NCBI GenBank assembly: GCA_041751215.1 | Contig: JBGSXW010000005.1 | Span: 3,664-67,663 of the forward strand | Reading direction: 5' to 3' | Source of the DNA: Candidatus Saccharimonadales bacterium | GTDB lineage: Bacteria > Patescibacteriota > Saccharimonadia > Saccharimonadales > JBGSXW01 | Length of the DNA: 64,000 nt | In this document: in pieces, positions 6,579-61,092 of the stretch | How the letters are laid out: each line of letters starts with the position of its first letter | How positions within the stretch are numbered: the first letter of the stretch is position 1 | Notes under the pieces: generated by a model | The model's input: the letters and a program-made list of their open reading frames with translations, nothing else | The model's database searches: none | Told to the model about the DNA's origin: nothing | Program-made: the position numbers and the translations under genes

Positions 6579-6638
6579 CCATCATCCACCCCTTGCGTCG
6601 GCAGGAACCACTCTTTCCCAAGAGACTCCTGCCGGCGC
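6576..6638 (+). repeat. conserved 3' module of cassette 2
   Basis: TGACCATCATCCACC plus the same 40-nt hairpin as 5519-5558, followed by a T-run. Confidence 0.8.
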
Positions 6639-15107: not shown

Positions 15108-15115
15108 ATGCTCTC

Positions 15116-16987: not shown

Positions 16988-17032
16988 ATCTGTTGAATTA
17001 TATCATAAGCGTAATCAGAATGATTGCTGATT

Positions 17033-17851: not shown

Positions 17852-17861
17852 TGTCCTTATG

Positions 17862-17898
17862 CTAGCAAAGAAATAACCCGGCGCAAGTCCGGGTTATT
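17862..17898 (-). terminator. intrinsic terminator candidate after the pilin genes
   Basis: AATAACCCGG-N7-CCGGGTTATT stem, followed on the minus strand by TTCTTTG. Confidence 0.45.
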
Positions 17899-17925
17899 TA
17901 ATCGGTGCTAGATTATCTAAGTAAA

Positions 17926-18414
17926 CTAAGCGTTGTCCTCGCAGTAGCTACCGCCACCCTCAAGCATAATAACAACAGCTACGTTTCTTGCGCCGCCTGA
18001 GGCCAAGCCAGCAAGAGCTGATCCGGACTGACATACAAGTCCCGATCCAACCACGATGTCGCCTGGTTCAGGGTCATAGGTGCCACCAGCGTATGCAGCA
18101 AGATAAACAGTTACGTTTTCCACCTGGTAGTTATTGCCAGTAGTAGGATCGGTTATTCCCTCTGGCAAATAATCTTCCATTATTGGATCAAACGTTGCAT
18201 TGTTAAGAATAGCGGGGTACTGTCCGTTATTGTTGCCGGCATAAGTTTCAAGTGCGCCCAGTATCCTAGCGGCGTCCTTCTTTCGCTGCGTATCACGACG
18301 TGATTTTTGCAGTTGTGGCAAGGCCAAGAAGACTATCAGAAAGATCAATCCTGCGATTGCAAGGACGAGCACGACCTCGATGATCGTGAAGCCGCGCTCG
18401 TTTTTCTTCAACAT
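17926..18414 (-). CDS. type IV pilin (paralog 1)
   Basis: ERGFTIIEVVLVLAIAGLIFLIVFLALPQ; C-terminal Cys pair. Confidence 0.8.
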   Translation of the reverse strand: MLKKNERGFTIIEVVLVLAIAGLIFLIVFLALPQLQKSRRDTQRKKDAARILGALETYAGNNNGQYPAILNNATFDPIMEDYLPEGITDPTTGNNYQVENVTVYLAAYAGGTYDPEPGDIVVGSGLVCQSGSALAGLASGGARNVAVVIMLEGGGSYCEDNA

Positions 18415-18434
18415 ATTATGTTGCCCTTAGTTGC

Positions 18435-18938
18435 TTATTGGTTATCCTGGCAGTAAGAACCAGTTTCTAATCGCATCACTATAGCGATATCTCGGCTACC
18501 AGAACCAGTTGCAATGGCTTCGCCAGAACAGACACCGTTAGTAGCATATCGGAAGTTACCTGGTGTGGTCCCTGCGCTACCTACTCCAAAAGTTGAAGTA
18601 GTTGGTGTTGTGCCAGTTGATGGTGGGTTAACACCATAACCAAGACCGCTGGTTGGGTCTAAGTAGTTGTCCGATAGGTACGTTGTTGCAAAGCTGGTGA
18701 AGCTGTTTGCTCCACTGGCAGCAGCAGCTGGATATACTCCGCTGTTGTTACCGGCATAGCTCTCAAGTGATGAAAGCATACGGCCAACGTCATTCTTGCG
18801 CTGTGTGTCGCGTCGTGAACGTTGTAATTGTGGCAAGGCTAGGAAGACGATCAAAAAGATCAATCCTGCGATTGCCAGTACTAATACGACTTCGATGATG
18901 GTGAAGCCTGATTCTTTACGATTGGTTGTTTTTTGCAT
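18435..18938 (-). CDS. type IV pilin (paralog 2)
   Basis: ESGFTIIEVVLVLAIAGLIFLIVFLALPQ; ATG at 18938 chosen because AGGAGGG lies 8 nt upstream (the track ORF extends to 18965). Confidence 0.8.
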   Translation of the reverse strand: MQKTTNRKESGFTIIEVVLVLAIAGLIFLIVFLALPQLQRSRRDTQRKNDVGRMLSSLESYAGNNSGVYPAAAASGANSFTSFATTYLSDNYLDPTSGLGYGVNPPSTGTTPTTSTFGVGSAGTTPGNFRYATNGVCSGEAIATGSGSRDIAIVMRLETGSYCQDNQ

Positions 18939-18988
18939 GTTTGCCACCCTCCTGTTAGTTGGCATTACATATAAATGCTCATGCCCTG

Positions 18989-19016
18989 ATTGTACTAAAG
19001 CTTAACCGTATTGCAA
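18989..19016 (-). promoter_or_regulatory. sigma70-like promoter candidate for the pilin genes
   Basis: Minus-strand TTGCAA-16 nt-TACAAT about 50 nt upstream of the pilin ATG. Confidence 0.4.
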
Positions 19017-19072
19017 TAGATAAAATCAGATGGATGCAATAACTATCCACAGGGTGCCTGCAAGGCGGCTAT

Positions 19073-19126
19073 GACACCTTTTAAAAAAGGTGCCCCAAAA
19101 CCTTCCCGTTGCTACCAAAACATAGT
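19073..19126 (+). repeat. partial element A head (palindrome GACACCTTTTAAAAAAGGTGCC + CCAAAACCTTCCCGTTGCTACCAAAACA)
   Basis: Reverse-complement match to 47341-47393. Confidence 0.7.
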
Positions 19127-19133
19127 TTCTTTT

Positions 19134-19311
19134 GTCGCTTGCCAGCGACGTGGCATTGCCACTTTTTAAAAAGTGGCTCAAAACTACCCCGCTGCTACTA
19201 AAACACTCATGAACTTGTTTCGCACAGAACTTGGGTTACTGCGGAGTACGTATGAACAGTCCTCGTCACGCCATGTTCTGTCCTTACAAGTTCAGAGATT
19301 TTAGTAGATGC
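19134..19311 (+). repeat. element A, copy 3 (subfamily A2)
   Basis: Hairpin GTCGCT-TGCC-AGCGAC; palindrome 19158-19177; closing helix CTACTAAAA../..TTTTAGTAG; core GCGGAGTACG..ACAGTCCTCGTCACGCC. Confidence 0.8.
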
Positions 19312-19350
19312 GGGTTTATCCGAACATCTGACCCTATTTTCAGGGATGAA

Positions 19351-19430
19351 GCACAAGGAAGTTGTGAGTAGTGGAAGGGTTGCTGTGCGTATAGCACTGC
19401 GCCCTGAGCAAGGGAACAACTAACGCAGAG
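19351..19430 (+). repeat. element B, copy i (intergenic, divergent)
   Basis: GCACAAGGAAG....GTGC-GTATA-GCAC hairpin....AACGCAGAG; aligns with 55728-55802. Confidence 0.6.
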
Positions 19431-19490
19431 CTCGTGGTGCGAGCTGCTCCGCAGCTCGGCAGACGAGCGGTGATTCGCCCTGAAAAGAGG

Positions 19491-20708
19491 TCAGACGGCT
19501 ATGGATTGGCCAACTAGGCCGTAAACTGGTAGCAAAATCGCCGCCACCAACAGTCCCGCCACCAAGGCCAAAACAATCATTAACACTGGTTCAATGGTCG
19601 AGGAAATCGCTTTAATTTCGTCATCAAGTTCTCGCTCGTAGTAAAGGGCGGTCTTTTCAAGCATCTTGTCTAAGCTGCCAGACTGCTCACCAATTCGGAT
19701 CATCTGCGGAACCAATGGCAAAAAGTTCTGATCGTCTTTTAGAGACTCAGACAGCGCCGTACCAGACTTAACTCTCTCGGACGCATGCATAACTGATTCT
19801 TTAATATGTACGTTATTTACAGCGTCTCCGGTAATGCGAAGCATTTCTAGCATCGGCACTCCACTGGCAGTTAGCGTTGTAGCGGTTCTAGCAAACCGAG
19901 CCATGTACATCTTCATAAACAAACGACCAAATATCGGAGCTGTCATCTTTAGCCTGTCACCGGCTCTACTGCCGCTACTGGACCTAAAGTATTTGGCGAT
20001 CATGTAGCCAACAATTCCAAAAAGAACGATTAGCGCATACCAGAACTTGATAATAAACTTAGCGATTGCCAGCATAAAAGCTGTAATAAATGGCAGTGAT
20101 TGTCTCAAGTCAACGTAAAGCTGCTCAACCTGGGGCAAGACAGTGGTTAACATGAAGATCACAACGCCACAAATAACCACCAACACAATGATTGGATAGA
20201 TCATGGCTCCACGAACTTTGGCAATAACTTCGGCGTCTTTTTCTTGCTGATCAGCGATGCGCTCCAGGGCTTTATCGAGCGTACCCGACGCCTCACCGGC
20301 TGCCACCAAGCTAACAAAAACTGTGTTAAATACCTTAGGGTGTTTTGCCAGCGAGCTAGCAAAAGTGCCACCGGCTTCAACATCTGTAATAACCTCGCTG
20401 ATTATCACCTGTAGAGGCTTGCTATCAGTTTGCTCTGACACGGTTCTAAGCGACTGCACCAGCGGAAGACCAGAGTTAATCATGGTCGAAAGCTGACGAG
20501 AAAACAGAACTTTATCTTTAGACTTAATGCGGTTTCCAAACCGACCCTTCAGACTGGTGTCTTTGGCGTCTTTGAGCTTGATTTCAATTGGCGCCAAACC
20601 CTCTTTGCTGAGTTGCTTGGCAGCTGCCCGCTCGTTATCAGCCTGCATCAGTGCGGTGATTTTTTCACCGGTCTTGGAATCTCTGGCTGTATATTCAAAA
20701 GTTAACAT
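19491..20708 (-). CDS. pilC: type IV pilus assembly platform protein (GspF family)
   Basis: 405 aa, two GspF-type repeats, three TM segments. Confidence 0.85.
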   Translation of the reverse strand: MLTFEYTARDSKTGEKITALMQADNERAAAKQLSKEGLAPIEIKLKDAKDTSLKGRFGNRIKSKDKVLFSRQLSTMINSGLPLVQSLRTVSEQTDSKPLQVIISEVITDVEAGGTFASSLAKHPKVFNTVFVSLVAAGEASGTLDKALERIADQQEKDAEVIAKVRGAMIYPIIVLVVICGVVIFMLTTVLPQVEQLYVDLRQSLPFITAFMLAIAKFIIKFWYALIVLFGIVGYMIAKYFRSSSGSRAGDRLKMTAPIFGRLFMKMYMARFARTATTLTASGVPMLEMLRITGDAVNNVHIKESVMHASERVKSGTALSESLKDDQNFLPLVPQMIRIGEQSGSLDKMLEKTALYYERELDDEIKAISSTIEPVLMIVLALVAGLLVAAILLPVYGLVGQSIAV

Positions 20709-20714
20709 GGTTGT

Positions 20715-21782
20715 TTAGCCGCGCATTAGGCGGTCAAGCTCCTCGATATCAACCGCAAAGTTGCGGGCTTCTTCGTAAGTTATGGTTCCGGCGTGAATTA
20801 GCGATACTAGTGTCTTGTCCATCGATTGCATGCCGTGCTCAGCACCGGTTTGAATTACGGCATCAAGCTGGTGAGATTTGCCTTCACGGATGATGTTACG
20901 AACAGCTGGCGTAGCTACCATGATTTCAGCCGCCACCATTCGCCCACCGCCGATAGCCGGAACTAGACGCTGCGACACAATGGCCTGCAACATGGCGGAG
21001 AGCTGAGCCCGAATCTGTGGCTGCTGGTGTGGCGGGAAAACGTCAATCATACGGTCAATCGACTGAGCAGCCGAGTTGGTGTGAAGGGTTGCAAACACCA
21101 AGTGGCCAGTTTCGGCAATGGTTATGGCTGCAGCAATAGTTTCGAGGTCGCGCATCTCACCGATCAGCACAACGTCGGGGTCTTGGCGCAAGCTTGAACG
21201 CAAAGCTGCCGAGAATGAATAGGTGTCGTAGTGAACTTCTCGTTGCACTACTACAGACTTCTTGGATTTGTGCGTAAACTCAATTGGATCTTCGATGGTA
21301 ACAATGTGCTCAGCACGCTCGGTGTTAATCTTGTCGATAATTGCAGCCAGCGTTGTTGACTTACCTGAACCGGTTGGACCGGTTACAAGAACTAGGCCAC
21401 GTGGATACTCGGCAAATGAGCTAACTACTTGAGGCAGACTCAGCTCGTCGATGGTTTTAATCTCATTAGGAATAAGGCGAAGTGCTGCCGCCATGTTTCC
21501 TCGCTCATGAAAAGCGTTAACACGGAAGCGACCAAGATCGCCAAAGGCAAACGAAAAGTCGAACTCTTTATCTTTAATAAGTATCTGCTTTTGGTCCTCG
21601 TCTAAAATTGCAAAGACTAGAGATTCTACTTGTTCTTCATTAAGATTTTCGGCACCGCTAACGGCTTTAAGTGAGCCATCAACACGGAGCATTGGCGGTA
21701 AGCCAACTTGCAAGTGAAGGTCAGAAGCTTTTTGCTTGATGACTTCTTCTAGTAGTAGTTCGATTCTTAGATTATTCGCCAT
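20715..21782 (-). CDS. pilT: twitching-motility retraction ATPase
   Basis: Walker A GPTGSGKST; TIEDPIE; Walker B/Asp box DPDVVLIGEMRD; His box ATLHTNSA; ~355 aa. Confidence 0.85.
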   Translation of the reverse strand: MANNLRIELLLEEVIKQKASDLHLQVGLPPMLRVDGSLKAVSGAENLNEEQVESLVFAILDEDQKQILIKDKEFDFSFAFGDLGRFRVNAFHERGNMAAALRLIPNEIKTIDELSLPQVVSSFAEYPRGLVLVTGPTGSGKSTTLAAIIDKINTERAEHIVTIEDPIEFTHKSKKSVVVQREVHYDTYSFSAALRSSLRQDPDVVLIGEMRDLETIAAAITIAETGHLVFATLHTNSAAQSIDRMIDVFPPHQQPQIRAQLSAMLQAIVSQRLVPAIGGGRMVAAEIMVATPAVRNIIREGKSHQLDAVIQTGAEHGMQSMDKTLVSLIHAGTITYEEARNFAVDIEELDRLMRG

Positions 21783-21805
21783 TTGTGTGTCCCCTCCCCG
21801 GAGTA

Positions 21806-23617
21806 TTAGGCGCTGTCAATGGCAGCGACGCGATTAACTTCCTCGAGCGTTGTCATCCCAGCCAGAGCCTTCAGGTAGCCGTCCTCGCGCATGGTAATCA
21901 TACCTTGCGCTTGCGCTGCTCGTTGAATCTCACTACTGGTTGAATGATTAAGGATTAACTCCTCAATGTGCTCGTCGATCTCGAATACCTCATAGAGGCC
22001 GAGACGACCTTTATAGCCGCCCGGGGCAGATCGCGTGTCTTTGCCCTTATATAAAGTATAAGCATTTTGGTTAGCCAAGGGCAAGCTCTCGTATCCGAGG
22101 TCCTTGGCAACCGCCGACATCTCTTCCTGGTTTTTGGGCAAAATGTGACCGATAGTTTCATTGATAGCCTGAGTCTCAACCTTGCTAGACTGATAGACCT
22201 CAGGCTCGCCGCCGATTCGTCTAACCAATCGTTGACCGATAACAGTATTAACCGTCGACGCAATCAAAAATGGCTCGATTTGCATGTCGAGAAGTCGAGG
22301 CAAGATGCCGGCAGCCGAGTTGGTGTGAAGCGTAGAGAAAACCAAGTGACCAGTCAAAGCTGCCTGAGTTGCCAGCTCGGCGGTTTCTTTGTCGCGGATC
22401 TCTCCGACCATCACTACGTCTGGGTCTTGGCGCAAGATTGAGCGCAAACCAGTAGCAAAAGTTAGACCAACTCCAGGGTTAATCTGAATCTGGTTAACGC
22501 CGCTAATTTTGTACTCTACCGGATCCTCGAGCGTCACAATGTTGATTTGCTCGTTCTTAATTTCCTTGATCATGGCGTACATCGAGGTCGACTTACCAGA
22601 ACCAGTTGGGCCGCTGGTTAGAACCATGCCGTTAGGACTAAGCAGGCCTTTTTTAATGGTTCGTAGTGCTCGGCCGGTGTAGCCCATGTCCGCCAAATCC
22701 ATGCTAGTGCCGGTTTTATCCAGCAAACGAATTACTATCTGCTCGCCCCAAACGGTTGGCGAAATCGCAATACGCAGGTCGATCTCTTTTTGCTTCACTT
22801 TAAGAGTAAACTGTCCGTCCTGAGGAACTCGGTGTTCATCAATCTTTAAGTTTGAGAGAATCTTTACTCGAGACACCAGCGCGGCTTCGGTGCTTTTGGG
22901 CAGATGCATGACTTCGCGCAGCACGCCGTCGACTCGAACTCGAATTTTGACTTCTTTTTCGGTTGGCTCGATGTGAACATCGGAAGCTTCGCTATCGGCA
23001 GCAAATTCCAAAATTGTAGTTAGCGCGCGGCTAATCGGCGAATCTTGTGAAACCGTAACAACTTCTTTATCACGGCCCAGCTCGGTGGTGGCGTCCGCTA
23101 GTTCTTTGGTATCGATACCTTTTATGCCTCCGCCGGTGGCTTGTCCTAAGGCGTCTGTAACTCCCCGCTTTATATCAGTGCCATACTGGCTAATAACATG
23201 CTTAATTCCCTCCTCGGAGGCCATATAGACCTTAAGGGGGCGTCCAATCTTCTGACTTAGGTAGTCGGCTGCCTGAACGTTATCGGCATCTAGCATGGCA
23301 ACTACTAGCCGATTCTGCATTTCTCCTAGCGGAACCGCCATAAAACGCTCAGCCGCATCTTGTGGCAGTAGATTTAAGATATCTGGGCTAACAGTTGCTT
23401 TGCTTAAATCAACGTATGGCAGATTTAAAACTTTTGCCGTTGCTTTGGTTAGTTGTTCCTCGCTAACTTTGTGGTTCTTAATAAGGTACGTTAGCAGCGG
23501 CTCGCGCAGCTGGCTGGCCGTTTTTTTGGCATCATCTAGTTGGGGCTTGGTCATTGCCCCTTGGGTTACAAGCAGATCGTAGACCTGCTGCTGATTGGTT
23601 TCAGATAGAACGCTCAA
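21806..23617 (-). CDS. pilB: type IV pilus assembly ATPase (GspE family)
   Basis: N-terminal MshEN/GSPII-like repeats; GPTGSGKST; LEDPVE; DPDVVMVGEIRD; STLHTNSA. Confidence 0.85.
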   Translation of the reverse strand: MSVLSETNQQQVYDLLVTQGAMTKPQLDDAKKTASQLREPLLTYLIKNHKVSEEQLTKATAKVLNLPYVDLSKATVSPDILNLLPQDAAERFMAVPLGEMQNRLVVAMLDADNVQAADYLSQKIGRPLKVYMASEEGIKHVISQYGTDIKRGVTDALGQATGGGIKGIDTKELADATTELGRDKEVVTVSQDSPISRALTTILEFAADSEASDVHIEPTEKEVKIRVRVDGVLREVMHLPKSTEAALVSRVKILSNLKIDEHRVPQDGQFTLKVKQKEIDLRIAISPTVWGEQIVIRLLDKTGTSMDLADMGYTGRALRTIKKGLLSPNGMVLTSGPTGSGKSTSMYAMIKEIKNEQINIVTLEDPVEYKISGVNQIQINPGVGLTFATGLRSILRQDPDVVMVGEIRDKETAELATQAALTGHLVFSTLHTNSAAGILPRLLDMQIEPFLIASTVNTVIGQRLVRRIGGEPEVYQSSKVETQAINETIGHILPKNQEEMSAVAKDLGYESLPLANQNAYTLYKGKDTRSAPGGYKGRLGLYEVFEIDEHIEELILNHSTSSEIQRAAQAQGMITMREDGYLKALAGMTTLEEVNRVAAIDSA

Positions 23618-23629
23618 AGCTAACTACTC

Positions 23630-23869
23630 CTACTGAAAGGGGTTGTTGCTGTTGGACTCACCGATGCGTATAAGTTCGGTTGGGTTGAGGTAACCCTCCG
23701 CAAAAATCTTGGTGTCCGGTTGCGGAAAGTCAGCATCGATTGGAGCTACAATTTCGACTTCCGTGCTACGACTAGCCTCGGTATTGATCAGCATGTCAAA
23801 GACAAACCATGAAACCATTAAGCTGACCCCGACTACTAGAATCAGTGCTGCTATATCTTTTTGTTTCAT
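23630..23869 (-). CDS. small single-TM protein in the pilMNO block
   Basis: 79 aa, N-terminal TM, translationally coupled (4-nt overlap) to the upstream gene. Confidence 0.45.
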   Translation of the reverse strand: MKQKDIAALILVVGVSLMVSWFVFDMLINTEASRSTEVEIVAPIDADFPQPDTKIFAEGYLNPTELIRIGESNSNNPFQ

Positions 23870-24498
23870 TGGATTACTCCTTTGCTAATGTCGAGGTTGG
23901 TAGAAGGCTGGTAGAAGGTGCTGATCTGTAAGTCGGCGGTCATGACATTATCGCTACCACTCATGCGCATGCTGTCGATTCTAAATGGTCGTATTGAGCG
24001 TTCTAGTGATCTCACAAACGACTGGACATCACCATATGTTCCCTCAATAGAAACGCTAAACGGAATCTCTACTGGTTCTGGTGTAGCGCTGGTTCCTACC
24101 GCATCAGTTGATGCGTCGGTTCCGGCAAACGAAGCTAGGCTCCCACCGGTTCCGGTAACGATTTTCTCGACTGATGTCGCAACGGCTGGAAAGTCATATT
24201 TGCTTGGCAGCGCATCAAGTATCAACTGTGAGTCAATGTCCGAAGCCTCAAGCGCCACAAACGAGTTTTGGAGTTCTTCGGCGTTAGTGAGGTTAGTGTC
24301 TAGCTGGTTGCGCGCTGTTTCTTGCGCTGCAATGACCCTACTCTGATAACCTCGCTGATCCCACAAAATCTTACCAATGACCAAAGAGGCCGATACGATA
24401 ATTGAACTCACAACGAGAGTAATAAAGATATGCGCGTTGGCCTGCTGAATTAGGACTCGCTTGTCGTACGATTTTTTGATTGGTTTCATGCCAAGCAT
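23866..24498 (-). CDS. pilO: PilO-like pilus assembly protein
   Basis: TM + coiled-coil + C-terminal ferredoxin-like segment; position after pilN. Confidence 0.55.
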   Translation of the reverse strand: MLGMKPIKKSYDKRVLIQQANAHIFITLVVSSIIVSASLVIGKILWDQRGYQSRVIAAQETARNQLDTNLTNAEELQNSFVALEASDIDSQLILDALPSKYDFPAVATSVEKIVTGTGGSLASFAGTDASTDAVGTSATPEPVEIPFSVSIEGTYGDVQSFVRSLERSIRPFRIDSMRMSGSDNVMTADLQISTFYQPSTNLDISKGVIQ

Positions 24499-25197
24499 TT
24501 AGTTACCCTCCGAAAAGACTGATGGTTTTTCTTTACTAGACACCGTGCTGGCGATAGATGGAATCGACATAGTAACTACTTTGTCCGAAGCAAAGATTGC
24601 TGGATCAAACTGCATCGATAAAACAAAGCCAGTTGCAAACCGAGACTCAGCCTGCGGGTCGCGGCCAATGCTGGTTAGAACTACATTTGGAAAGGCCGGT
24701 AGCGACACGTCTTTTAGGTCAGCCGTTACGTATGAGGCGTTTTTGATGGTGTCGACATAGCGGTTTACGGCTTTAAAGTTAGTGGATCGTCCGGTCAGTT
24801 GGATCTGTTGAACTGCCCCTTCAACTGAGCCACCGAGACTCATCTCGCTGGCATCAAGCACGACATCAGCGGGTGTAATCTGCGACAAATATCTAAAGAA
24901 TCGACTTATCTCGGGCGCCTGAGCATGAAGTCCGGGCAAAGCCTTAAGTTGAGACTGAACAGTTAGAATCTCTGGCAGTTCTGGAATTGCCTGAAGCTCG
25001 CTGGCCTTGCTAGAAATATCGGTCTCTAAGTTAGCAATGTGACGCTTTTGCACCACGTATACACTTAGCGTCAAAATAACGACGATCGCTAAGAAGAAGC
25101 CACCTATTCCGAGTGCGGTGAGCACGATAATCCGCTTTGCTCGCTGAGCCTTTAGGAATTCTTGCTTAACATTTGGTACCAGGTTTAGTTGTATCAT
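24499..25197 (-). CDS. pilN: PilN-like pilus assembly protein
   Basis: N-terminal IQLNLVPN motif, then a TM helix. Confidence 0.6.
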   Translation of the reverse strand: MIQLNLVPNVKQEFLKAQRAKRIIVLTALGIGGFFLAIVVILTLSVYVVQKRHIANLETDISSKASELQAIPELPEILTVQSQLKALPGLHAQAPEISRFFRYLSQITPADVVLDASEMSLGGSVEGAVQQIQLTGRSTNFKAVNRYVDTIKNASYVTADLKDVSLPAFPNVVLTSIGRDPQAESRFATGFVLSMQFDPAIFASDKVVTMSIPSIASTVSSKEKPSVFSEGN

Positions 25198-25198
25198 A

Positions 25199-26236
25199 TT
25201 ATTCCACCCTCAATGCTAGTCCGGTAGCCACGCCAAACTGGCTGGATACGGCAATTAATTCGTTGTAACGATCCCTCGGGTAGCTCACGTTTGTCCAAGT
25301 ATTACCGATCTCGACCGGTATGTGGGTTTGATTAGCTAGGTAAAGTGGAAATTCTGGCAAAGTTGAAGCGCCGCCGGTTACGACAATCTTTTCTAAATCT
25401 TGGTTGTAGCGAGTTTTAAAGAACTTAACAGACTTATCGACTTCGCTAACTAGGCTGTCTACGGTGTGCTGCAGGGCTCGGAATACTTGGCCTTCGAGCT
25501 TATCTTGGCTCAGTCCAAACTTGTAGACGAACTGTTTTGCCTGGGCTTCGTCGACATTCAAGTTTTGCATGGCAGCTTTAATGAATGATGATCCGCCAGT
25601 TGGAATCGAGCGCACCAGTTTTGGATTGGCAGCGGCGCTAATTACTAAGTCTGTAGCGTGGTTGCCGATATCTAAAATCATTTGCGGGGTTGAGGTGGCT
25701 GGCGGCGTCAAAGAACGCACCAGCGCCAAGGCTTCAGGCTCTAAGGCAATGACGTTAAAACCTGCACCCTCTAGGCTGTTGAGCCGAGATTCAGCAAAGT
25801 CGTTTGGAACAGATGCGAATAGAACTTCTACTTTTCCGCGATCGGCTGGAGAATCTCCCAGTAGTGACCAGTCAAGCTTAACTTCGTTTAGTGGCTGTGG
25901 AATAAAACTTTCTGCCTGGTAGGCGACCGTTTTGCGCAGCTCAGCTTCTTCTAGCTTTGGAATATCGGCTACGGTCACAAAGCTTCGGTTGGCGGGTACG
26001 CCAACAGCGACATTGCGAGTTGTGATGCCAGTTTCGTTAACTAGAGCAACAATGGCGTCGATTAAACGCTTTTGATCTGCCGGAGCATCACTTTGTGCAG
26101 TTTTAACGTCTACTGCCTTTTGGCCGTAGCGCATTAGCACGCTTTGTCTTCCGGAGGTTTTTATCTGGACCACCCGTATCGCCGAGCTTCCGATATCCAA
26201 ACCGAAGAAATCGCCGATACCGCTTAAGATTCCCAT
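25199..26236 (-). CDS. pilM: PilM, actin-like ATPase of the pilus alignment complex
   Basis: GLDIGSSAIRVV phosphate-1 motif; ...VVTGGAS. Confidence 0.8.
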   Translation of the reverse strand: MGILSGIGDFFGLDIGSSAIRVVQIKTSGRQSVLMRYGQKAVDVKTAQSDAPADQKRLIDAIVALVNETGITTRNVAVGVPANRSFVTVADIPKLEEAELRKTVAYQAESFIPQPLNEVKLDWSLLGDSPADRGKVEVLFASVPNDFAESRLNSLEGAGFNVIALEPEALALVRSLTPPATSTPQMILDIGNHATDLVISAAANPKLVRSIPTGGSSFIKAAMQNLNVDEAQAKQFVYKFGLSQDKLEGQVFRALQHTVDSLVSEVDKSVKFFKTRYNQDLEKIVVTGGASTLPEFPLYLANQTHIPVEIGNTWTNVSYPRDRYNELIAVSSQFGVATGLALRVE

Positions 26237-41466: not shown

Positions 41467-41566
41467 ATCTTCTTATTCCTGTTTACTTATATTGTAACTG
41501 ATTGTTCTGGATTCTCGATCAGGTCGAGAATGACGTTTGCTAGGTTTTAACGATTTTGGTGAATCA

Positions 41567-41650
41567 GATGCACGGAAGATGCGAGTCGCGGAGTCCAGTT
41601 GTACATCAGCGTACCACTGGCGAGCAACGGAGCACCTGACACAGCAGATG
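41567..41650 (+). repeat. element B, copy vii (inside the ssb-rpsR spacer, antisense to the operon)
   Basis: GCACGGAAGATGCGAGTCGCGGAGTCCAGTTGTACATCAGCGTACCACTGGCGAGCAACGGAGCACCTGACACAGCAG aligns with 55728-55802. Confidence 0.75.
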
Positions 41651-41664
41651 GCCACCATAAATTG

Positions 41665-42144
41665 TTAAAAGGGGATTTCGGAGAGATCAACTGGCTCATC
41701 ATCAATATCTTCGATGACAACATCTTCGTCTTTCTTTTTGCTATCAACTTTTGGTGCTGACGACTCGGTGTTAGAAGACTTAAAGCTCCCACCGCCAGAG
41801 CCACCGCCCTCACCTTGACCGCCAATAAAGTTAAAGTCTTCTACTACGACCTCAACCTTTGAGCGCTTTTGGCCATCTTGTTCCCAAGATCGACTCGATA
41901 AACGACCAGAAACTAGTAGTGGTCGGCCTTTTTGGACGTACTGATTAATAATCTCGCCAGCTTTGCCCCAAGCGACGCAGTCAAAAAAGTCGACGGCTTC
42001 TTGAGTTTCGCCGGCTTGATTCTTCCAGCTACGATTAACAGCCAGCGCAAACGAACAAACATTTTGCCCGTTTGGAGTAGTTCTTAGCTCTGGATCCCTG
42101 GTTAGGTTGCCAAGTAGTGTAACTTTGTTAAAACCTTTAGCCAT
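41665..42144 (-). CDS. ssb: single-stranded DNA-binding protein
   Basis: OB-fold N-terminus (NKVTLLGNLTRDPELR); Gly-rich linker; acidic tip DLSEIPF. Confidence 0.9.
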   Translation of the reverse strand: MAKGFNKVTLLGNLTRDPELRTTPNGQNVCSFALAVNRSWKNQAGETQEAVDFFDCVAWGKAGEIINQYVQKGRPLLVSGRLSSRSWEQDGQKRSKVEVVVEDFNFIGGQGEGGGSGGGSFKSSNTESSAPKVDSKKKDEDVVIEDIDDEPVDLSEIPF

Positions 42145-47224: not shown

Positions 47225-47395
47225 CGCATCAGCTAAAACTCCTGAATTTGTGAGGGAGAAACCCGGCGTAGCGAGGACTGTCCGCCAGTTGGCGGACGGA
47301 CTCCGCAGCTACCCGAGTTTTGACTGAGCAAATTCAAGGATTGTTTTAGCTGCAGCGTGAAAGGTTTTGGGGCACCTTTTTTAAAAAGGTGTCGT
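47225..47395 (-). repeat. element A, copy 2 (subfamily A1)
   Basis: CGCATCAGCTAAAACTCCTGAATTTG.GAGGGAGAAACCCGGCGTAGCGAGGACTGTCCGCCAG..GGCGGACGG matches 6665-6740 almost base for base; palindrome at 47371-47393. Confidence 0.85.
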
Positions 47396-49389: not shown

Positions 49390-50145
49390 CTAGGCTTTTG
49401 CCTTATCTTTTTCTATAAGTTCCAAAATTTTAGGTATACGGGCGAAGTCTTCTAGTAGCACTGTTCTCATTCCCCCGTTGTAGAGTGCTGCGGCCGGGTG
49501 GTACAGGGGCAGGATGACGAACGCCAGCTGGGACTGCTTACTGACTCCGTCAGTAACTCCTCCCAGCTTCGCGGCGATCTGCTGCGTTGACGCCTCCAGT
49601 GCTCCGTCTTCGGATGCTCGATCCGTGTCTGTCCGCGCTTCGGCGTCGCCTTGCAGCTCATCCGCGCGCTCGCCCCCTGGAGTCTTTTCGATATTAAAGC
49701 GCTTCCTCTTTGGCTGCCCATGCGCCTCGCCGATGCGAACATCAGGCAGGAATGCATTGGTCGAGTGGCGCCCGAGCGTGACAATCAAATCTGGTTTAAT
49801 TGCCTCGATCTGGCGCGTTAGAAACGGCATAAACTGAGCTTTTTCCTCTGGCAGAGGGTCTCGGTTAGCCGGAGGTCGATACTTAACAATGTTGGTAATG
49901 TACACGTCTTCTCGATTGAGATTAATGCTTTGCAGCATTTTGTTTAGAAACTTCCCAGCGGCTCCAACAAACGGCTTGCCCTGCTTGTCTTCCTGAGCGC
50001 CAGGAGCCTCGCCGATAAACATAAGTTTAGCATCGAGACTGCCATCGCCCATTACCAGTTGAGTGGCTCCAGCGGCCAGCTCCGAGCAAATGTTTTGATT
50101 TTTAATGTCCTGTTCGATGCGATCTAGCTGCTGTTGCTTGCTCAT
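49390..50145 (-). CDS. family-4 uracil-DNA glycosylase carrying an in-frame element B insert
   Basis: Motif A FIGEAPG; motif B LYHPAAALYN; about 50 extra residues before motif B. Confidence 0.8.
   Translation of the reverse strand: MSKQQQLDRIEQDIKNQNICSELAAGATQLVMGDGSLDAKLMFIGEAPGAQEDKQGKPFVGAAGKFLNKMLQSINLNREDVYITNIVKYRPPANRDPLPEEKAQFMPFLTRQIEAIKPDLIVTLGRHSTNAFLPDVRIGEAHGQPKRKRFNIEKTPGGERADELQGDAEARTDTDRASEDGALEASTQQIAAKLGGVTDGVSKQSQLAFVILPLYHPAAALYNGGMRTVLLEDFARIPKILELIEKDKAKA
49531..49689 (-). repeat. element B, copy ii (in-frame within the UDG gene; boundaries approximate)
   Basis: Coding strand GATGAGCTGCAAGGCGACGCCGAAGCGCGGACA..CGGAT-CGAGC-ATCCG..GGAGCACTGGAGGCGTCAACGCAGCAG. Confidence 0.75.
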
Positions 50146-52807: not shown

Positions 52808-53659
52808 TTATTCAAGAGGAATTACTGATGAAATTATTTTCTCGGCATCAGCTTCCGGAGATACCGCTTCATCTACCCTGTAGCTGGCAATGGTAGTTCG
52901 TCTCAGATCTGTTAGGTAGGCGCCGGTGTTTAGCCCCTTACCGATGTCCTCTGCCAAGCTACGAATGTAGGTTCCGCTAGAAACTTTGGTCCTGCATTTA
53001 AGTTTTGGGTACTCATAAGAAACAACTTCAAGCGAATGAATAACAACTGTGCGCGACTTTAACTCAATTGGCTGACCTTTGCGGGCCTGTTTATAGGCTG
53101 GCTGACCGTTTACTTTAATCGCCGAATAGCTGTGTGGGCGTTGCATAATCTCGCCCGTAAATTGCTTAATGACCTCTGTTATTTGCGATTCTGTGGGCGC
53201 CTTGGCATTTGGCCATGGTTCAGGTTCGCCTTCGGCATCACCGGTGACTGTAGTTGCTCCGAGTTGAGCCGTGAAGTCATATGACTTATCAAGCTTTAAA
53301 AGCCTGTCGGCTTGCTTGGTGGCCGATCCAATAAGCAAAATCATCAGTCCAGAAGCTAGAGGATCTAATGTTCCGGCATGCCCAACGCGAAGCTTCCGCA
53401 CCGCGTCGCCCTGTTGTCCGGCTACGCCGGCCATGCCGGCGAGCTTGTGGCGCAGCGCTGTGTCAGCTGGCGTCTGTCGCTCGCTCACCGTGTCATTTAC
53501 ACGACGCGCTCGCTCCTCCTGGCTTCCTTGCGCTGCATCCACATGCGAAAGTCGCGCACTTTCCGCCAGTTGAGCTCTTCGCAGAGTTCCGCGGACCTTC
53601 GCCACTACGTCAAAAGACGACCAGCCTTTTGGTTTATCTACTAGCAAAATGCCGTTCAT
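52808..53659 (-). CDS. truB: tRNA pseudouridine-55 synthase carrying an in-frame element B insert
   Basis: GILLVDKPKGWSSFDVV...VGHAGTLDPLASGL, with about 59 extra residues between the two conserved blocks. Confidence 0.8.
   Translation of the reverse strand: MNGILLVDKPKGWSSFDVVAKVRGTLRRAQLAESARLSHVDAAQGSQEERARRVNDTVSERQTPADTALRHKLAGMAGVAGQQGDAVRKLRVGHAGTLDPLASGLMILLIGSATKQADRLLKLDKSYDFTAQLGATTVTGDAEGEPEPWPNAKAPTESQITEVIKQFTGEIMQRPHSYSAIKVNGQPAYKQARKGQPIELKSRTVVIHSLEVVSYEYPKLKCRTKVSSGTYIRSLAEDIGKGLNTGAYLTDLRRTTIASYRVDEAVSPEADAEKIISSVIPLE
53399..53575 (-). repeat. element B, copy iii (in-frame within truB; boundaries approximate)
   Basis: Coding strand GTGGATGCAGCGCAAGGAAGCCAGGAGGAGCGA..CGTGT-AAATG-ACACG..GACGCCAGCTGACACAGCG. 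Confidence 0.7.
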
Positions 53660-55448: not shown

Positions 55449-55636
55449 GTCGCTCCCGCGACGGGGCAATGCCACTTTTTATAAAGTGGCGTTGGAACTC
55501 TCCCGCTAACTACCAAAACAAAACTCATTAGTCTATGGGGCCAAAGAACTCGGGCAACTTGCGGAGTCCGTCTGAACAGTCCTCGTTGCGCCGGGTCTTT
55601 GGCCGCACAGCCTTAAAGAGGTTTTGGTAGAGACGG
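55449..55636 (+). repeat. element A, copy 4 (subfamily A2)
   Basis: Hairpin GTCGC-TCCC-GCGAC; palindrome GCCACTTTTTATAAAGTGGC (55471-55490); helix CTACCAAAAC../..GTTTTGGTAG; core GCGGAGTCCGTCTGAACAGTCCTCGTTGCGCC. Confidence 0.8.
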
Positions 55637-55727
55637 AAAGTTACAGGAAGGGCTTTACATCTCACCTCTGTTAGTGTATATTCATCCCCTGAAACTAAAT
55701 TAAGTACGGGTTTCGTACTTAGGTGTA

Positions 55728-55802
55728 GTGCAAGGAAGAAGCGAAGCGCGGAGCCTAGTTGTACAGTCGTACTGCTAGCGAGCACTAGAGCGTCTGACGC
55801 AG
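55728..55802 (+). repeat. element B, copy iv (intergenic, upstream of rpsT)
   Basis: GTGCAAGGAAGAAGCGAAGCGCGGAGC-CTAGTTGTAC-AGTC-GTACTGCTAG-CGAGCACTAGAGCGTCTGACGCAG. Confidence 0.8.
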
Positions 55803-55878
55803 TAATACACTAAGAACCTTGACGGGTGGCCAGTTCAACTGGACAGCAGGTCAAGGTGATACGAAAGCCAGAGGTCAT

Positions 55879-58402: not shown

Positions 58403-58509
58403 ATCCCTATAGCTATACCACTTTTTAAGCAGTTGTTGCTACTTATGCTTCCCTGAACTCTTTTCACTACCAATCACCGTTCACCTGCCTAGCTGCAAAG
58501 CAGCTAGCA

Positions 58510-58595
58510 CTGCGAACTCTTTGTCAGACACTCCGCTGCTCGCAAGTAGTACGCAATGTACAACTTGGCTGCGCTGCTCACGTCTTCCGCGTGCT
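58510..58595 (-). repeat. element B, copy v (immediately 3' of mutM)
   Basis: Minus strand CACGCGGAAGACGTGAGCAGCGCAGC-CAAGTTGTAC-ATTGC-GTACTACTTG-CGAGCAGCGGAGTGTCTGACAAAG. Confidence 0.7.
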
Positions 58596-58612
58596 TGGTT
58601 AGTGCAACGAGC

Positions 58613-59650
58613 TCAAGGTTTTTGGCACCGCGGACAATAGTGCGTACCCCGGCCAGCAACTCTCGTCTTTAAAATCTCCGACCCACAAACTCGGCAAGCC
58701 AAGCCCTCGCGCTTAAACACTCGAGCGTGCTCTAAATAATCGCCTCTCGTTCCCAAAACATTTACATAATTAGTAAAGCTCGTGCCGCCACGTTCAATGC
58801 CATCGTGCAGAGTTGATTTGACTGCCTCGTACAAAGTTTCAATCTGTTTATCGCTAAGTTTAGAAGACTTTATAGCTGGGTGAATTTTGGCTAAGTGAAG
58901 TGATTCGTCGGCATAAATGTTGCCGATTCCAGCCACGGTAGTCTGATCTAAAAGTACGGCTTTGATTGGAGCGTTTCGTTTCTTAACGACACCCTTAAAG
59001 TGCGCCAGCGTAAACTCCTTGCCGTGCGGTTCTGGGCCAACTTTGAGCAAAAATGGATCCTCATCCACGCTCTGCGTGCGCACTAACTTTACCCAGCCAA
59101 ACTTGCGTTGGTCGTTAAAGTAAACTATAGAACCACTTGCAAAGTGAAAGATCAGGCGAGTGCTGCTGTCAGGAAGCGAATTCTTGAGATCCATACTGGT
59201 ACTTGGATGGCCGCCCGCAAATCTTTCAAAACTCATAGATTGTGAGCTGCGAGGCGCCTGCCGTCTAGTAGCACTAGCCGCACCGCGCCTCTCTGCGTCA
59301 GTGGCTCCGGTACTCTCGCCCAGTACGCTGTTGTACTGATTGGTCCGTTCCTCGTCACTTCCTTGCAGCTCATCGGCCTGATGAGCTTTGAACCCAACTT
59401 GATTATCTACAATAACTTGGCCGGTCATCTTGAGGTGAAACATCAAAGAGTAGCCAGATGCCAAGTCGATGATCAAAACTTTGGCACGTCGGCGAACGGC
59501 CGTAACTTTGCTTCCAATCGCATTGAGGTAATCATCCTGCTCAAATAATGCAGTCTTAGGTGTTAATACATCGATGCTAGTTAGTGTGTCGCCAACAATC
59601 CGCGGCTCCAAGCCACGTTTTATTGTCTCGACCTCAGGTAATTCAGGCAT
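58613..59650 (-). CDS. mutM: formamidopyrimidine-DNA glycosylase carrying an in-frame element B insert
   Basis: MPELPEVET N-terminus; H2TH; C-terminal zinc finger CRVCGSEI....GRGTHYCPRCQ; 345 aa versus the usual ~270-290. Confidence 0.85.
   Translation of the reverse strand: MPELPEVETIKRGLEPRIVGDTLTSIDVLTPKTALFEQDDYLNAIGSKVTAVRRRAKVLIIDLASGYSLMFHLKMTGQVIVDNQVGFKAHQADELQGSDEERTNQYNSVLGESTGATDAERRGAASATRRQAPRSSQSMSFERFAGGHPSTSMDLKNSLPDSSTRLIFHFASGSIVYFNDQRKFGWVKLVRTQSVDEDPFLLKVGPEPHGKEFTLAHFKGVVKKRNAPIKAVLLDQTTVAGIGNIYADESLHLAKIHPAIKSSKLSDKQIETLYEAVKSTLHDGIERGGTSFTNYVNVLGTRGDYLEHARVFKREGLACRVCGSEILKTRVAGRGTHYCPRCQKP
59231..59389 (-). repeat. element B, copy vi (in-frame within mutM; boundaries approximate)
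   Basis: Coding strand GCCGATGAGCTGCAAGGAAGTGACGAGGAACGGACCAAT-CAGTAC-AACAGC-GTACTG-GGCGAGAGTACCGGAGCCACTGACGCAGAG. Confidence 0.8.
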
Positions 59651-59780: not shown

Positions 59781-60374
59781 GTGTTTGATGATAGAGGTTC
59801 AACGACAGGCACCGCAGCCGGTGTCTTTGTGGGTGCAGTTGGCCTGTACTCCATCGTGCAGTTCTTTCTGCTGTTCATGGCAGCAGCTGCCATGGGAGTG
59901 GGCATCCTGGTGTTTCTGGCGGTTCTTTGTGTGTACGGAGTGATCAAGTTCCTCATTCGAGCTGCAGAGTTCGATGAAGAGTGGTACCGCAATGTCGGCC
60001 TCGCTCTGTTCTGCACCGGTGTTGCCGCAGCCGCGGGATACTTCATCGGTGTCGAGCTGGGCTTTTCTCAGGTTCTGGCCGACTTCATCGTGAACGGCGA
60101 GGAAGCGAGCGAGATGCGCAGCAACTCGATCATCTACCCGCTGATCACTCTCTTCTTCGGCATCCTGCTCGCGGGCTCGTACTTCTTGGGTCTCCCGATC
60201 ACGCTGTGGATCTTCGCGACGGACGATTTCGATGAGTGGTGGGAGATGGCTTGGTTCCCGAGCCTCAACTTCTTCATCCTGATCGTCCTCATGGAGGCTG
60301 CTCGTCTCGATCTGGGACCCCTCCAGGACGAGATGCCGACCCTGTGGGAGGCGTTCACGCAACCCTTCGGTTGA
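59781..60374 (+). CDS. polytopic membrane protein, tandem paralog 1 (GC-rich)
   Basis: GTG start after GGAGGTG; N-terminus VFDDRGSTTGTAAGVFVG; C-terminus TLWEAFTQPFG; 4-5 TM helices. Confidence 0.6.
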   Translation: MFDDRGSTTGTAAGVFVGAVGLYSIVQFFLLFMAAAAMGVGILVFLAVLCVYGVIKFLIRAAEFDEEWYRNVGLALFCTGVAAAAGYFIGVELGFSQVLADFIVNGEEASEMRSNSIIYPLITLFFGILLAGSYFLGLPITLWIFATDDFDEWWEMAWFPSLNFFILIVLMEAARLDLGPLQDEMPTLWEAFTQPFG

Positions 60375-60402: not shown

Positions 60403-61092
60403 GTGTTTGATGACCGTGGTTCCAGCAGCGCTGGAACGGCCGTAGGTGTATTCCTCGGTATGGCCGGTATGTACTGGCTTGCTGTGCTCTGCACCTATGT
60501 GCTCTTCGCGTCCATAGTGGGTGCCCTGGTGGGTATCATCCTGGTCGTGGTTTACATCAGCTTCGTTATCTTTGCGGTTGGCAAGGTCCTGATGTCGATT
60601 TCTAAAGCAGGAACTGCTGGCTTCAGGATTATCGGAGTAGCCCTTGGCTTTGGAGCTGTGGCTGGAGTAATAGCTAGCTTCGCGTCTGGTTTCGGTGTAG
60701 CCGAGTGGATTGATGTAACGCTCGCTAGCTTCGGGAGCTACAACGAGGAGAGCCTGCCAGAAGTGCCTGCTTGGCGCACATATATCGTTGCTCCAATACT
60801 CGGCCTGCTCACTGTCGGCGCATACTTCGGTGGCATTCCATACGTCCTGGTCACATTGAGCTTCACTCTGGATGAAATTTTGGAGGATGAAGACGACTCG
60901 ATAGCCAAAACACCAGAAGGGTCGTTTGACCCGGACTACATCCTCATCGGAGGAAGCCTGGTGGGGTTCCATCTTGCGATAGTGACCTTCATCATGGTCA
61001 TGTTCATCGAGTCCGAAAGAGCGCACATGCTGCGACTCGGCGAGGACGTTCCATCACTACTCGAGGCCTTTTTCCAACCTTGGATAATGTAA
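60403..61092 (+). CDS. polytopic membrane protein, tandem paralog 2
   Basis: GTG start after AAGGAG; N-terminus VFDDRGSSSAGTAVGVFLG; C-terminus SLLEAFFQPWIM. Confidence 0.6.
   Translation: MFDDRGSSSAGTAVGVFLGMAGMYWLAVLCTYVLFASIVGALVGIILVVVYISFVIFAVGKVLMSISKAGTAGFRIIGVALGFGAVAGVIASFASGFGVAEWIDVTLASFGSYNEESLPEVPAWRTYIVAPILGLLTVGAYFGGIPYVLVTLSFTLDEILEDEDDSIAKTPEGSFDPDYILIGGSLVGFHLAIVTFIMVMFIESERAHMLRLGEDVPSLLEAFFQPWIM

Follow-up and report, generated by a model that had tools for sequence, protein, structure and literature searches.

The RPEs of Rickettsia are the described system to which the element reported here comes closest. As PMC10969869 relates in summarizing Ogata et al. (2000, 2002), they are palindromic, multicopy repeats of ~150 bp that occur in intergenic DNA and in frame within housekeeping ORFs, where they add a conserved peptide at fold-compatible positions, and in that account no transposase is known for them. 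The preliminary description of the present locus, from a Candidatus Saccharimonadales bacterium, had proposed selection on nucleic-acid structure, as in REP/RAYT-type or RPE-type elements. The comparison with RPEs fits, since the element is a multicopy palindrome of ~150-180 nt that keeps the frame of housekeeping genes open, codes there for a conserved hydrophilic peptide and forms loops missing from solved homologues. A repeat unit, open in-frame copies, a fold-compatible site and compensatory pairing place it in an RPE-like class, which is functional and not a sequence family. Both hosts are host-dependent bacteria with reduced genomes. However, Saccharibacteria belong to an unrelated phylum and the two elements are likened by behavior rather than by sequence; because phylum and consensus differ, homology to RPE families is not expected. 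The Saccharibacterial element also differs in its fold, a three-helix Y with internal loops that are near-invariant across the whole clade, in its locus-specific outer stems and strand-specific wobble pairs, in the retention of a truB copy since the host proteins diverged to about 50-55% identity, and in the concentration of its host genes among tRNA-modification enzymes and DNA glycosylases.

Other described repeats share some of these features. REPs and REPINs are likewise extragenic palindromes that are selected as single-strand hairpins, lie near gene ends and persist vertically over long times, and their mobilization in trans by a single-copy gene would be a further likeness. MITEs (Correia/NEMIS, ERIC, RUP, BOX) resemble the element in their length of 100-200 bp, in their many copies, in forming co-transcribed hairpins beside genes, and in occasional insertions that are in frame or replace a C-terminus. 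Integron attC sites are similar by description, being recognized as a folded single strand, conserved in structure above stem sequence, strand-specific and located just 3' of ORFs; however, our element has neither arrays nor a nearby integron integrase, its internal loops are conserved in sequence, and it occurs inside genes. These sites, like retrons, K-turns and known ribozymes, were weighed by description, with the Rfam scan as the only sequence test. At gathering threshold, Rfam returned one tRNA (tRNA-Arg) alone and no element match in the whole window, that is, the complete 64-kb stretch of DNA that was analyzed. E-value scans gave nothing better than E = 3 for the canonical element copy and no match for the second repeat family.

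Seven copies, as the preliminary description had counted, are the full complement of the window. They score 61.3-101.1 bits and the next match 10.2 bits in a covariance-model (CM) scan of the whole window with filters off, the window copies having belonged to the model's training alignment. An nhmmer profile seeded with four of the copies recovered the remaining three, and 100 shuffles of the window gave 0 matches to the box pattern that fits three copies. Units of the element measure ~125-180 nt overall, the full units in the window 126-170 nt.

Two of the seven copies lie at mutM (fpg), whose ORF (58613..59650, minus strand) has the 345 aa, the peptide and the DNA previously given for it and carries the Pfam domains Fapy_DNA_glyco, H2TH and zf-FPG_IleRS in addition to PDB matches to MutM. 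The copy inside the gene (unit 59225..59392, CM match 59268-59390, minus strand, 79.1 bits) is in frame, as had been claimed, and encodes Fpg residues 87-142 (56 residues), with the peptide FKAHQADELQGSDEER...SQSMSFE. Its outer stem (UUCAAAGCUCAU/AUGAGUUUUGAA) is followed by hairpin I and hairpin II, and the MFE of the fold is -70.1 kcal/mol (z = -3.08). The closest Fpg homologues (290-300 aa) are without the insert, and in the PDB alignment a wider segment, residues 82-162, replaces 9 residues of Geobacillus MutM 1L1T. AlphaFold predicts the protein confidently except at residues 88-136 and 298-302, the only ones with pLDDT < 50, and the insert is thus modelled as a disordered loop. The same loop is variable in length in other lineages and holds unrelated inserts in six homologues (P0004, P0007, P0013, P0038, P0049 and P0055); it is simply permissive. 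The inserts of P0007, P0013 and P0055 were rejected as recognizable element copies, there being no CM match in their DNA, and that of P0055 is unstructured (z = -0.48). An exact-sequence look-up of the window's Fpg found no identical entry on record.

The second mutM copy follows the gene in the same orientation (unit 58451..58618, CM match 58496-58616, minus strand, 67.2 bits). Its orientation was correctly described; its supposed start ~20 nt past the stop codon was not, as the 5' arm of the outer stem (CCUUGAGCUC) covers the final mutM codon together with the TGA stop (58613-58615). With outer stem and second hairpin included, both mutM units measure 168 nt, so that the size first assigned to the element was too small. 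We also considered that the downstream copy had shortened the C-terminus of Fpg, and set this idea aside because the C-termini of homologues are too variable to judge it by. A copy after fpg is missing both from L132, a syntenic relative, and from L119-L121, and L132 lacks the in-frame fpg copy as well.

The remaining genic copies of the window lie in truB (ORF 52808..53659; unit 53392..53555, CM match 53432-53555, minus strand, 79.5 bits) and in a family-4 UDG gene (ORF 49390..50145, Pfam UDG; unit 49510..49679, CM match 49558-49678, minus strand, 77.3 bits). According to PDB alignments, residues 25-89 of TruB replace 4 residues of 1SGV, and residues 133-201 of UDG replace 20 residues of 4ZBX. 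The three intergenic copies are all on the plus strand. One occupies the leader of rpsT, identified as S20 by Pfam (unit 55708..55870, CM match 55706-55826, 101.1 bits); it is in sense orientation, between a promoter-like site (55654-55682) and the start codon, and L132 has no copy upstream of rpsT. Another lies in the gap between ssb and rpsR (unit 41545..41670, CM match 41546-41668, 89.5 bits), antisense to both genes, with SSB assigned by Pfam and an S18-like flank. The third, between a pilin gene and pilC (unit 19327..19496, CM match 19329-19447, 61.3 bits), is antisense as well and runs over the pilC stop codon at its 3' end, and its flanks match Pfam N_methyl and T2SSF. Promoter and terminator scans round the intergenic copies gave no consistent signal of independent transcription, the sole match being the one upstream of the rpsT-leader copy.

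The element folds into a Y made up of an outer stem particular to each copy, hairpin I (~105 nt) and, usually, hairpin II (~45 nt), which the rod-type copy in the ssb/rpsR gap is without. In hairpin I, the internal loops (CAAGGA / CUGACRCAG and GA / GGA) are nearly invariant throughout the clade, and 92.2% of its 31 pairs are formed over 48 copies, compared with 23.5-42.3% when partners are slid; double changes occur at 28 pairs, and 0 of 500 shuffles equaled the observed values. Compensatory changes are found at all 16 of the 16 pairs of hairpin II. The covariation thus supports the proposed selection on nucleic-acid structure well beyond the seven copies of the window, and both mutM sequences are members of this family and share its covarying fold. 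Outer stems pair more stably with their own flanks than in cross-pairings (-14.9 vs -9.2 kcal/mol), and copies of the same genome whose cores are ~93% identical have entirely different outer stems. Wobble pairs are strand-specific: G.U outnumbers A.C by 98 to 32 overall, and by 30 to 0 at a single position. The flanking boxes, described at first as conserved across all copies, are indeed well conserved, but not perfectly: the fpg_post copy has CGCGGAAG/GACAAAG, the UDG copy CAAGGCGA/CAACGCAG and copy c19345 CTAACGCAG. Similarly, pairing of the central stem is kept in differing copies, but its sequence does not change completely, as a GTAC core is common to four of the seven; the central hairpin carries a conserved CGUAY core.

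The three genic copies of the window (fpg, UDG and truB) have one orientation and share one frame at the 5' box, as first noticed. This shared frame is largely forced, because stop codons interrupt both remaining sense frames in almost every copy: among 43 intergenic copies, sense frame s0 is stop-free in 14, s1 in 1 and s2 in 2, with 22-24 for each antisense frame. The peptides differ too, that of s0 being hydrophilic (GRAVY -0.72) and those of the antisense frames hydrophobic. Fpg, UDG and TruB all have an in-frame insert of ~50-60 residues that is missing in solved homologues, which hold short connecting segments of 4-20 residues where the insert segments lie. We infer that the inserts are translated and are tolerated as protein loops. 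A HMMER search with a peptide profile found internal in-frame copies in TruB, TsaE, TsaD, TilS, Dus, MPG, MsrA, DHFR and DUF488, and those in TruB and TilS of other genomes were confirmed in DNA by the CM. The copies in TruB, TsaE, TsaD, TilS, Dus and MPG reinforce the early hunch that the host proteins are DNA/RNA-modifying enzymes, a concentration for which a rough p < 1e-7 rests on an assumed base rate of 2.5-5%.

Beyond the window, 44 further copies were collected in 38 loci, nearly all of them in MAGs of Saccharibacteria, Saccharimonadales or Patescibacteria, and, as far as almost all fetched copies go, the family is confined to Saccharibacteria and other Patescibacteria. Most adjoin stop codons or sit in leaders; of those adjoining a stop codon, ~22 are antisense and ~13 sense to the neighboring gene. 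Copies elsewhere showed no conserved gene in their neighborhood. Many intergenic copies have been annotated by gene callers as hypothetical proteins of 50-70 residues. One candidate in-frame copy (L028) was rejected because the ORF had been called too long at its N-terminus, the peptide being Cys-rich and the copy lying at the gene start, and N-terminal matches in the pilin-like P0138, P0171 and P0232 were read likewise. Viral contigs were also discarded as carriers, as the seven pattern matches in them all scored <= 17 bits by the CM and none was real.

Turnover and persistence are both apparent. In one MAG, three 98%-identical, sharply bordered copies of 180 nt occur at unrelated loci, flanked by ordinary housekeeping genes. 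An epimerase gene (L011) takes its final 9 codons and its stop from one of them, comparable to the C-terminus-replacing insertions of MITEs. The three copies have a perfect 29-bp terminal inverted repeat with TA at both ends, and the only possible target-site duplication is this TA, inseparable from the repeat itself. Relatives, in which a search for empty sites had been put forward as a check, do show loci that lack the copy: L132 and L133 share or miss the truB and UDG copies in differing combinations, and the fpg, fpg-3' and rpsT-leader copies of the window are missing from L132. The UDG loop holds a copy in L132 (87 bits) and none in L133. A nucleotide identity of 41% obtained for the UDG copy by protein-guided alignment was discarded as meaningless, since the orthologues are out of frame with each other through indels.

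Many copies, by comparison, occupy orthologous positions of different species and keep the fold there: in truB, downstream of rpsG, and upstream of rpmA, where the Shine-Dalgarno lies within the outer stem. The site in truB is identical in three syntenic lineages, namely the window, L132 (76.4 bits) and L133 (73.2 bits), with 49-55% identity among the TruB proteins; L133 truB has an additional antisense in-frame copy. Third-position identity in truB is higher inside the element (56-62%) than outside (33-39%; p = 6e-4 to 0.03). In its hairpin-I region, the truB in-frame copy resembles an intergenic copy of another MAG, with most columns identical by eye, and the whole two-sequence alignment of the two has 81% mean column identity. 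Judged from sequence, the extra third-position conservation looks more like selected function than selfish DNA, and the element possibly has a function.

It is tempting to regard the family as mainly a functional structured RNA kept locus by locus by selection, either as a protein-bound cis module in mRNAs or as a processed small RNA, with the genic copies dual-coding for RNA and peptide, and with multiplicity owed to an old gene family and occasional duplication. This explanation, which overlaps with the one we favor, is possible though doubtful. The near-invariance of the internal loops over a phylum-level clade while all helices covary, loop sequences that would permit tandem G.A pairs, the G.U pairs of one strand, the orthologous copies at rpmA and rpsG together with the rpsT-leader copy, and both the third-position conservation of the truB copy in three lineages and its closeness to an intergenic copy elsewhere are all consistent with it. 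However, because orientation beside stop codons is mixed, most copies would be inactive if a strand-specific RNA acted within the mRNA of its host; promoter and terminator scans gave no consistent sign of separate transcription units, and no Rfam family matched; turnover is evident among relatives and from the near-identical copies at unrelated loci; and gene conversion between copies could mimic nucleotide conservation. A related, unlikely reading is that of a dual-coding module, in which the folded strand, be it RNA or single-stranded DNA, serves a conserved function (catalytic, or as a site bound by protein) and in-frame copies are selectively kept in base-flipping enzymes (DNA glycosylases and tRNA-modification enzymes), whose regulation or activity the mRNA structure or the disordered peptide would aid.

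Another explanation would have single-stranded DNA of a REP/REPIN-type or IS200/IS605-derived element moved by a Y1 protein (RAYT/TnpA) encoded elsewhere in the genome. The strand-specific, hairpin-based structure, the CGUAY core of the central hairpin, the mostly extragenic positions beside gene ends and the vertical persistence known from REPINs speak for it, yet we judge it very unlikely, and the RAYT part of the preliminary comparison is left without support. A Pfam scan of the 67 ORFs in the 64-kb window found no transposase, reverse transcriptase, RAYT or Y1_Tnp; the only recombinase there is a Xer-like tyrosine recombinase (12988-13899), and the same scan found an MmeI-like RM enzyme. 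Moreover, the anatomy is unlike that of REPs, which are short hairpins with a 5' GTAG and often form inverted doublets: the unit is much larger and more complex (125-180 nt in three helices with conserved internal loops, not a 20-40-nt REP or inverted doublet), consensus and fold have no GTAG/CTAC box at the stem base, copies occur inside ORFs, and the orientation bias relative to genes is weak. Descent as a classical MITE of Correia/ERIC type, by deletion from an IS, is highly improbable. Its copy number and intergenic placement are MITE-like, and the three near-identical copies have the terminal repeat and TA ends expected, but they are the exception. What defines a MITE is conserved inverted repeats at its ends, together with target-site duplications, whereas this family has hypervariable termini and is most conserved in its interior, the reverse of a MITE; no direct repeats were found at the three copies beyond the ambiguous TA, and no parent IS was found. 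Finally, we give practically no weight to chance or compositional similarity, or to ancient, vertically inherited protein domains without a common nucleic-acid origin. The length-variable Fpg loop with its unrelated inserts could be cited in their favor, but the other Fpg inserts have no CM match and the one that was folded is unstructured, and the same element recurs in unrelated proteins and, on either strand, between genes. Similarity no better than that of shuffles is refuted by the covariation, with its shuffle and slide controls, and by the CM gap of 61-101 vs 10 bits.

Thus, we suggest that the family is probably a non-coding, long-lived, RPE-like repeat element that depends on structure, with both mutM sequences as copies. 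We infer that it is mobile at the DNA level and that this mobility is structure-dependent. New copies would arise at fresh DNA sites through a trans-acting activity that recognizes the folded single strand and not fixed terminal sequences; a cut-and-paste element with fixed ends would not predict outer stems that differ wholly between copies of the same genome. A copy that lands in a protein surface loop may survive when it is stop-free, normally by using the one open sense frame, which encodes a hydrophilic, disordered peptide, and would then be translated. The copies in Fpg, UDG and TruB of the window would be such surviving, translated loop insertions. Once fixed, copies would endure for very long, and their nucleotide sequence may stay constrained even within coding regions. 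Against this reading speak the transposase-free window, the absence of a conserved gene beside copies elsewhere, target-site duplication limited to the ambiguous TA, the locus-specific outer stems, the many copies at orthologous positions and the third-position conservation in truB.

To our knowledge, palindromic repeats translated within housekeeping proteins have so far been essentially peculiar to Rickettsia. Saccharibacteria would represent an independent second case of the phenomenon, again in bacteria with tiny genomes and a host-dependent lifestyle. They also offer a more tractable one, with thousands of MAGs, a clean covariance model, and relatives that display gain, loss and deep retention of copies, and therefore phylogenetic profiling for the mobilizing gene and tests of selection on RNA structure are feasible. 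The element has consequences for annotation, as intergenic copies are called as hypothetical proteins and pilin and other ORFs are extended at their N-termini. That in-frame copies concentrate in DNA glycosylases and tRNA-modification enzymes offers a biological lead, and if the dual-coding reading were true, the family would represent structured RNAs of a new class, spreading as mobile elements do and exapted within coding sequences.

Four related segments were first recognized by repeat finding and by eye, and an nhmmer profile built from them recovered three more. A covariance model (CM) of element B, trained on the seven window copies plus 41 from other genomes (48 in all), was applied to the full window with filters off and gave exactly seven matches at 61-101 bits, the next best scoring 10 bits, with the window copies forming part of the training set. 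The seven copies of the preliminary description are thereby borne out, and its observation of element copies at mutM is confirmed. The mutM/fpg ORF (58613..59650, minus strand) encodes 345 aa with all three Fpg Pfam domains and does contain a translated in-frame copy (unit 59225-59392, CM match 59268-59390, minus strand), which encodes Fpg residues 87-142; the peptide originally quoted sits between HLKMTGQVIVD and RFAGGHP. The second copy had been placed 3' of the mutM stop: a same-strand copy is present there, but its unit (58451-58618, CM match 58496-58616, minus strand) takes in the last codon and the TGA. The extents of both mutM units include the outer stem and the second hairpin. Of the other copies, bounded by CM and fold, two are genic, in the family-4 UDG gene (49510-49679) and truB (53392-53555). 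The remaining three occupy the rpsT leader (55708-55870), the gap separating ssb from rpsR (41545-41670), and that separating a pilin gene from pilC (19327-19496). GC content is higher in the three in-frame copies (59268-59390, 53432-53555 and 49558-49678; 0.59-0.68) than in the intergenic copies of the window (0.50-0.54).

Selection on nucleic-acid structure, as initially proposed, is supported by the fold. Hairpin I has 31 consensus pairs, and pairing is kept in 92.2% of cells, compared with 23.5-42.3% for slid partners; its covariation score is 0.651 (slid partners, 0.06-0.12), and double changes occur in 28 pairs. These values were reached in none of 500 shuffles, which argues against a similarity no better than that of shuffles. 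The loops between its helices are almost invariant (CAAGGA opposite CUGACRCAG; GA opposite GGA), and a CGUAY core marks the central hairpin. A second hairpin of ~45 nt, carried by most copies, has compensatory changes in 16 of 16 pairs. The full unit, closed by a 6-16-bp outer stem, is a Y of some 155-180 nt; some genomes carry a rod-only form. Usually outside helix P1, the second hairpin lies inside helix P2 in window copies 59225-59392, 58451-58618 and 19327-19496, so that it acts as a module separable from the rest of the unit. In many copies, its sequence is compatible with an alternative pairing as well, GCAGAG/CUCUGC. G.U pairs outnumber A.C mismatches by 98 to 32 (30:0, 19:2 and 11:0 at three positions), and thus the structure is selected on one strand, as RNA or single-stranded DNA.

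The outer stem is complementary in every copy, while its sequence is copy-specific. The mean duplex energy is -14.9 kcal/mol for own flanks and -9.2 (sd 3.1) for cross-pairings, and the own flank ranks first in 19 of 47 cases. Copies within one genome whose cores are ~93% identical have unrelated outer stems (for example, L086:2328-2448 and L115:4217-4337), and one MAG holds three 98%-identical 180-nt copies with sharp borders and a common perfect 29-bp outer stem. The outer stem of the Fpg copy falls within the inserted segment. Palindromes extended by template switching, or gene conversion confined to the cores, might produce such stems; we offer both as ideas only. Of the three near-identical copies in one MAG, one (L011:2435-2613) forms the end of an NAD-dependent epimerase gene, whose final nine codons (TPFPVNCDI) and stop it provides, with a 58-nt half copy ~830 nt away.

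After an identical database entry, the nearest Fpg homologues are 54% identical, 290-300 aa long and without the inserted segment. Alignment with solved structures puts Fpg residues 82-162 in place of 9 residues of Geobacillus MutM, TruB residues 25-89 in place of 4 of M. tuberculosis TruB, and UDG residues 133-201 in place of 20 of the Sulfolobus enzyme. AlphaFold models Fpg with confidence (block means mostly 81-97) outside residues 88-136 and 298-302. Other lineages carry unrelated low-complexity inserts of 12-45 residues in the Fpg loop after HLKMTGQ (P0004, P0007, P0013, P0038, P0049 and P0055); the element was undetectable in the three examined, and these inserts are either copies that have decayed or the product of a loop that varies independently.

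An HMMER search of 1.84 billion representative proteins with a profile of the insert peptide gave 139 matches at E <= 1e-3. Most are 50-70-aa ORFs, which we interpret as intergenic copies called as genes; the one such case checked, P0124 in L129, has a gene on either side and a CM score of 87.7 bits. At least 12 longer proteins have an internal copy, among them TruB and TsaE (two representatives each), TsaD, TilS, Dus (two inserts), methylpurine-DNA glycosylase, MsrA, DHFR, a DUF488 protein and P0228, which has no Pfam match; the TruB and TilS copies were confirmed in DNA by CM (76.4 and 49.4 bits). By raw count, DNA glycosylases or tRNA-modification enzymes make up 8 of the 11 annotated host families, window Fpg and UDG included, in support of the DNA/RNA-modifying hosts first noted. 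The shared frame of the three genic inserts also stands, but is largely forced, because the other two sense frames are rarely stop-free: among 43 intergenic copies, frame s0 is open in 14, the remaining sense frames in 1 and 2, and each antisense frame in 22-24. Frame s0 encodes a hydrophilic peptide (GRAVY -0.72), the antisense frames hydrophobic ones; the limits of what is tolerated in a surface loop can account for the sense bias of genic copies. This bias is not absolute, since truB of contig L133 has a second, antisense, in-frame copy (L133:522-643, minus strand; canonical, 90 bits) that adds ~60 residues at a second site. In public gene calls, many intergenic copies are annotated as 50-70-aa hypothetical proteins (P0121-P0136 and about 100 others), and the pilin-like ORFs P0138, P0171 and P0232 are called too far upstream, through a copy; such calls are an annotation artefact that recurs systematically across Saccharibacteria MAGs.

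Two contigs, L132 and L133, show synteny with the window over 43.5-63 kb (fpg-x-holA-rpsT-x-truB-rpsO-pnp-udg-rnj-ftsK), with identities to the window proteins of 55% and 49% for TruB and 55% and 62% for UDG. The first-site truB copy is present in all three, and the antisense second-site copy in L133 but not in L132 or the window. Other copies are missing from one relative or the other: the in-frame and 3' fpg copies and the rpsT leader copy of the window are absent from L132 (the L133 locus covers neither fpg nor rpsT), and the UDG loop copy, shared with L132, is absent from L133. Intergenic copies also occupy orthologous sites across species, upstream of rpmA and after rpsG, and adjoin the same trehalase-like and peptidase genes. 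Upstream of rpmA the position is conserved in four genomes (L012, L054, L089 and L062), and the 3' arm of the outer stem holds the Shine-Dalgarno sequence (CCAGAAAGGA). The rpmA copies and the window rpsT leader copy (55708-55870) are sense-oriented in ribosomal-protein leaders, an arrangement that hints at translational control.

Orthologous truB copies retain the fold, with compensatory changes. Within the element, 56-62% of third codon positions are identical, compared with 33-39% in the rest of truB (Fisher p = 6e-4, 3e-3 and 0.03); amino-acid identity is similar in the two regions. The main alternative to constraint at these positions is gene conversion among copies. Taken together, deep conservation, selection on one strand and the constraint on third positions make a function at the RNA or single-strand-DNA level a real possibility.

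Further repeats occur in the window. Element A, an unrelated family, comprises a ~140-nt rod-like hairpin followed by a terminator-like hairpin (GCCACUUUUUAAAAAGUGGC), in four copies (6665-6830 and 47225-47395, plus strand; 19130-19312 and 55455-55600, minus strand); two of the four directly adjoin element-B copies, some compensatory changes are seen, and Rfam has no match. A possible third type of repeat is a 48-nt palindromic segment (CCGUGCGCCGGCAGGAACCACUCUUUCCCAAGAGACUCCUGCCGGCGC) whose two copies, at 5511-5558 and 6591-6638, lie 1080 nt apart and share 96% identity. The window also encodes an MmeI-like type IIG restriction-modification enzyme (500-3541), a Xer-like tyrosine recombinase (12988-13902), a complete type IV pilus cluster with duplicated pilin and ATPase genes (13944-26236), and adjacent paralogous membrane proteins without a Pfam match, both starting MFDDRGS (59781-60374 and 60403-61092).

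A pattern scan with one genome per species gave at least 118 loci. Among the matches listed, 44 genuine copies in 38 loci were confirmed by HMM and CM, nearly all in MAGs labelled Saccharibacteria, Saccharimonadales or Patescibacteria; the other loci were rejected as chance pattern matches unconfirmed by HMM or CM. The viral collection held no genuine copy, Rfam no matching family, and a literature search found no description of the element. In anatomy and behaviour its closest match is the Rickettsia palindromic elements (RPEs; summarised in PMC10969869), which supports the RPE-type reading of the preliminary description and its interpretation more generally. The REP/RAYT-type reading fared worse: the element fails the defining REP features because of its size and the missing GTAG box, and neither a RAYT nor another cognate Y1 transposase lies within the 64-kb window. 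Defining MITE features fail because the termini are variable. By analogy, we would say that the element works like an RPE, and we do not file it in the RPE sequence families.

Element B is thus a structured repeat family, undescribed until now, that Saccharibacteria carry in part as RPE-like in-frame copies, and two features, the locus-specific outer stems and the host-gene bias, are worth following.
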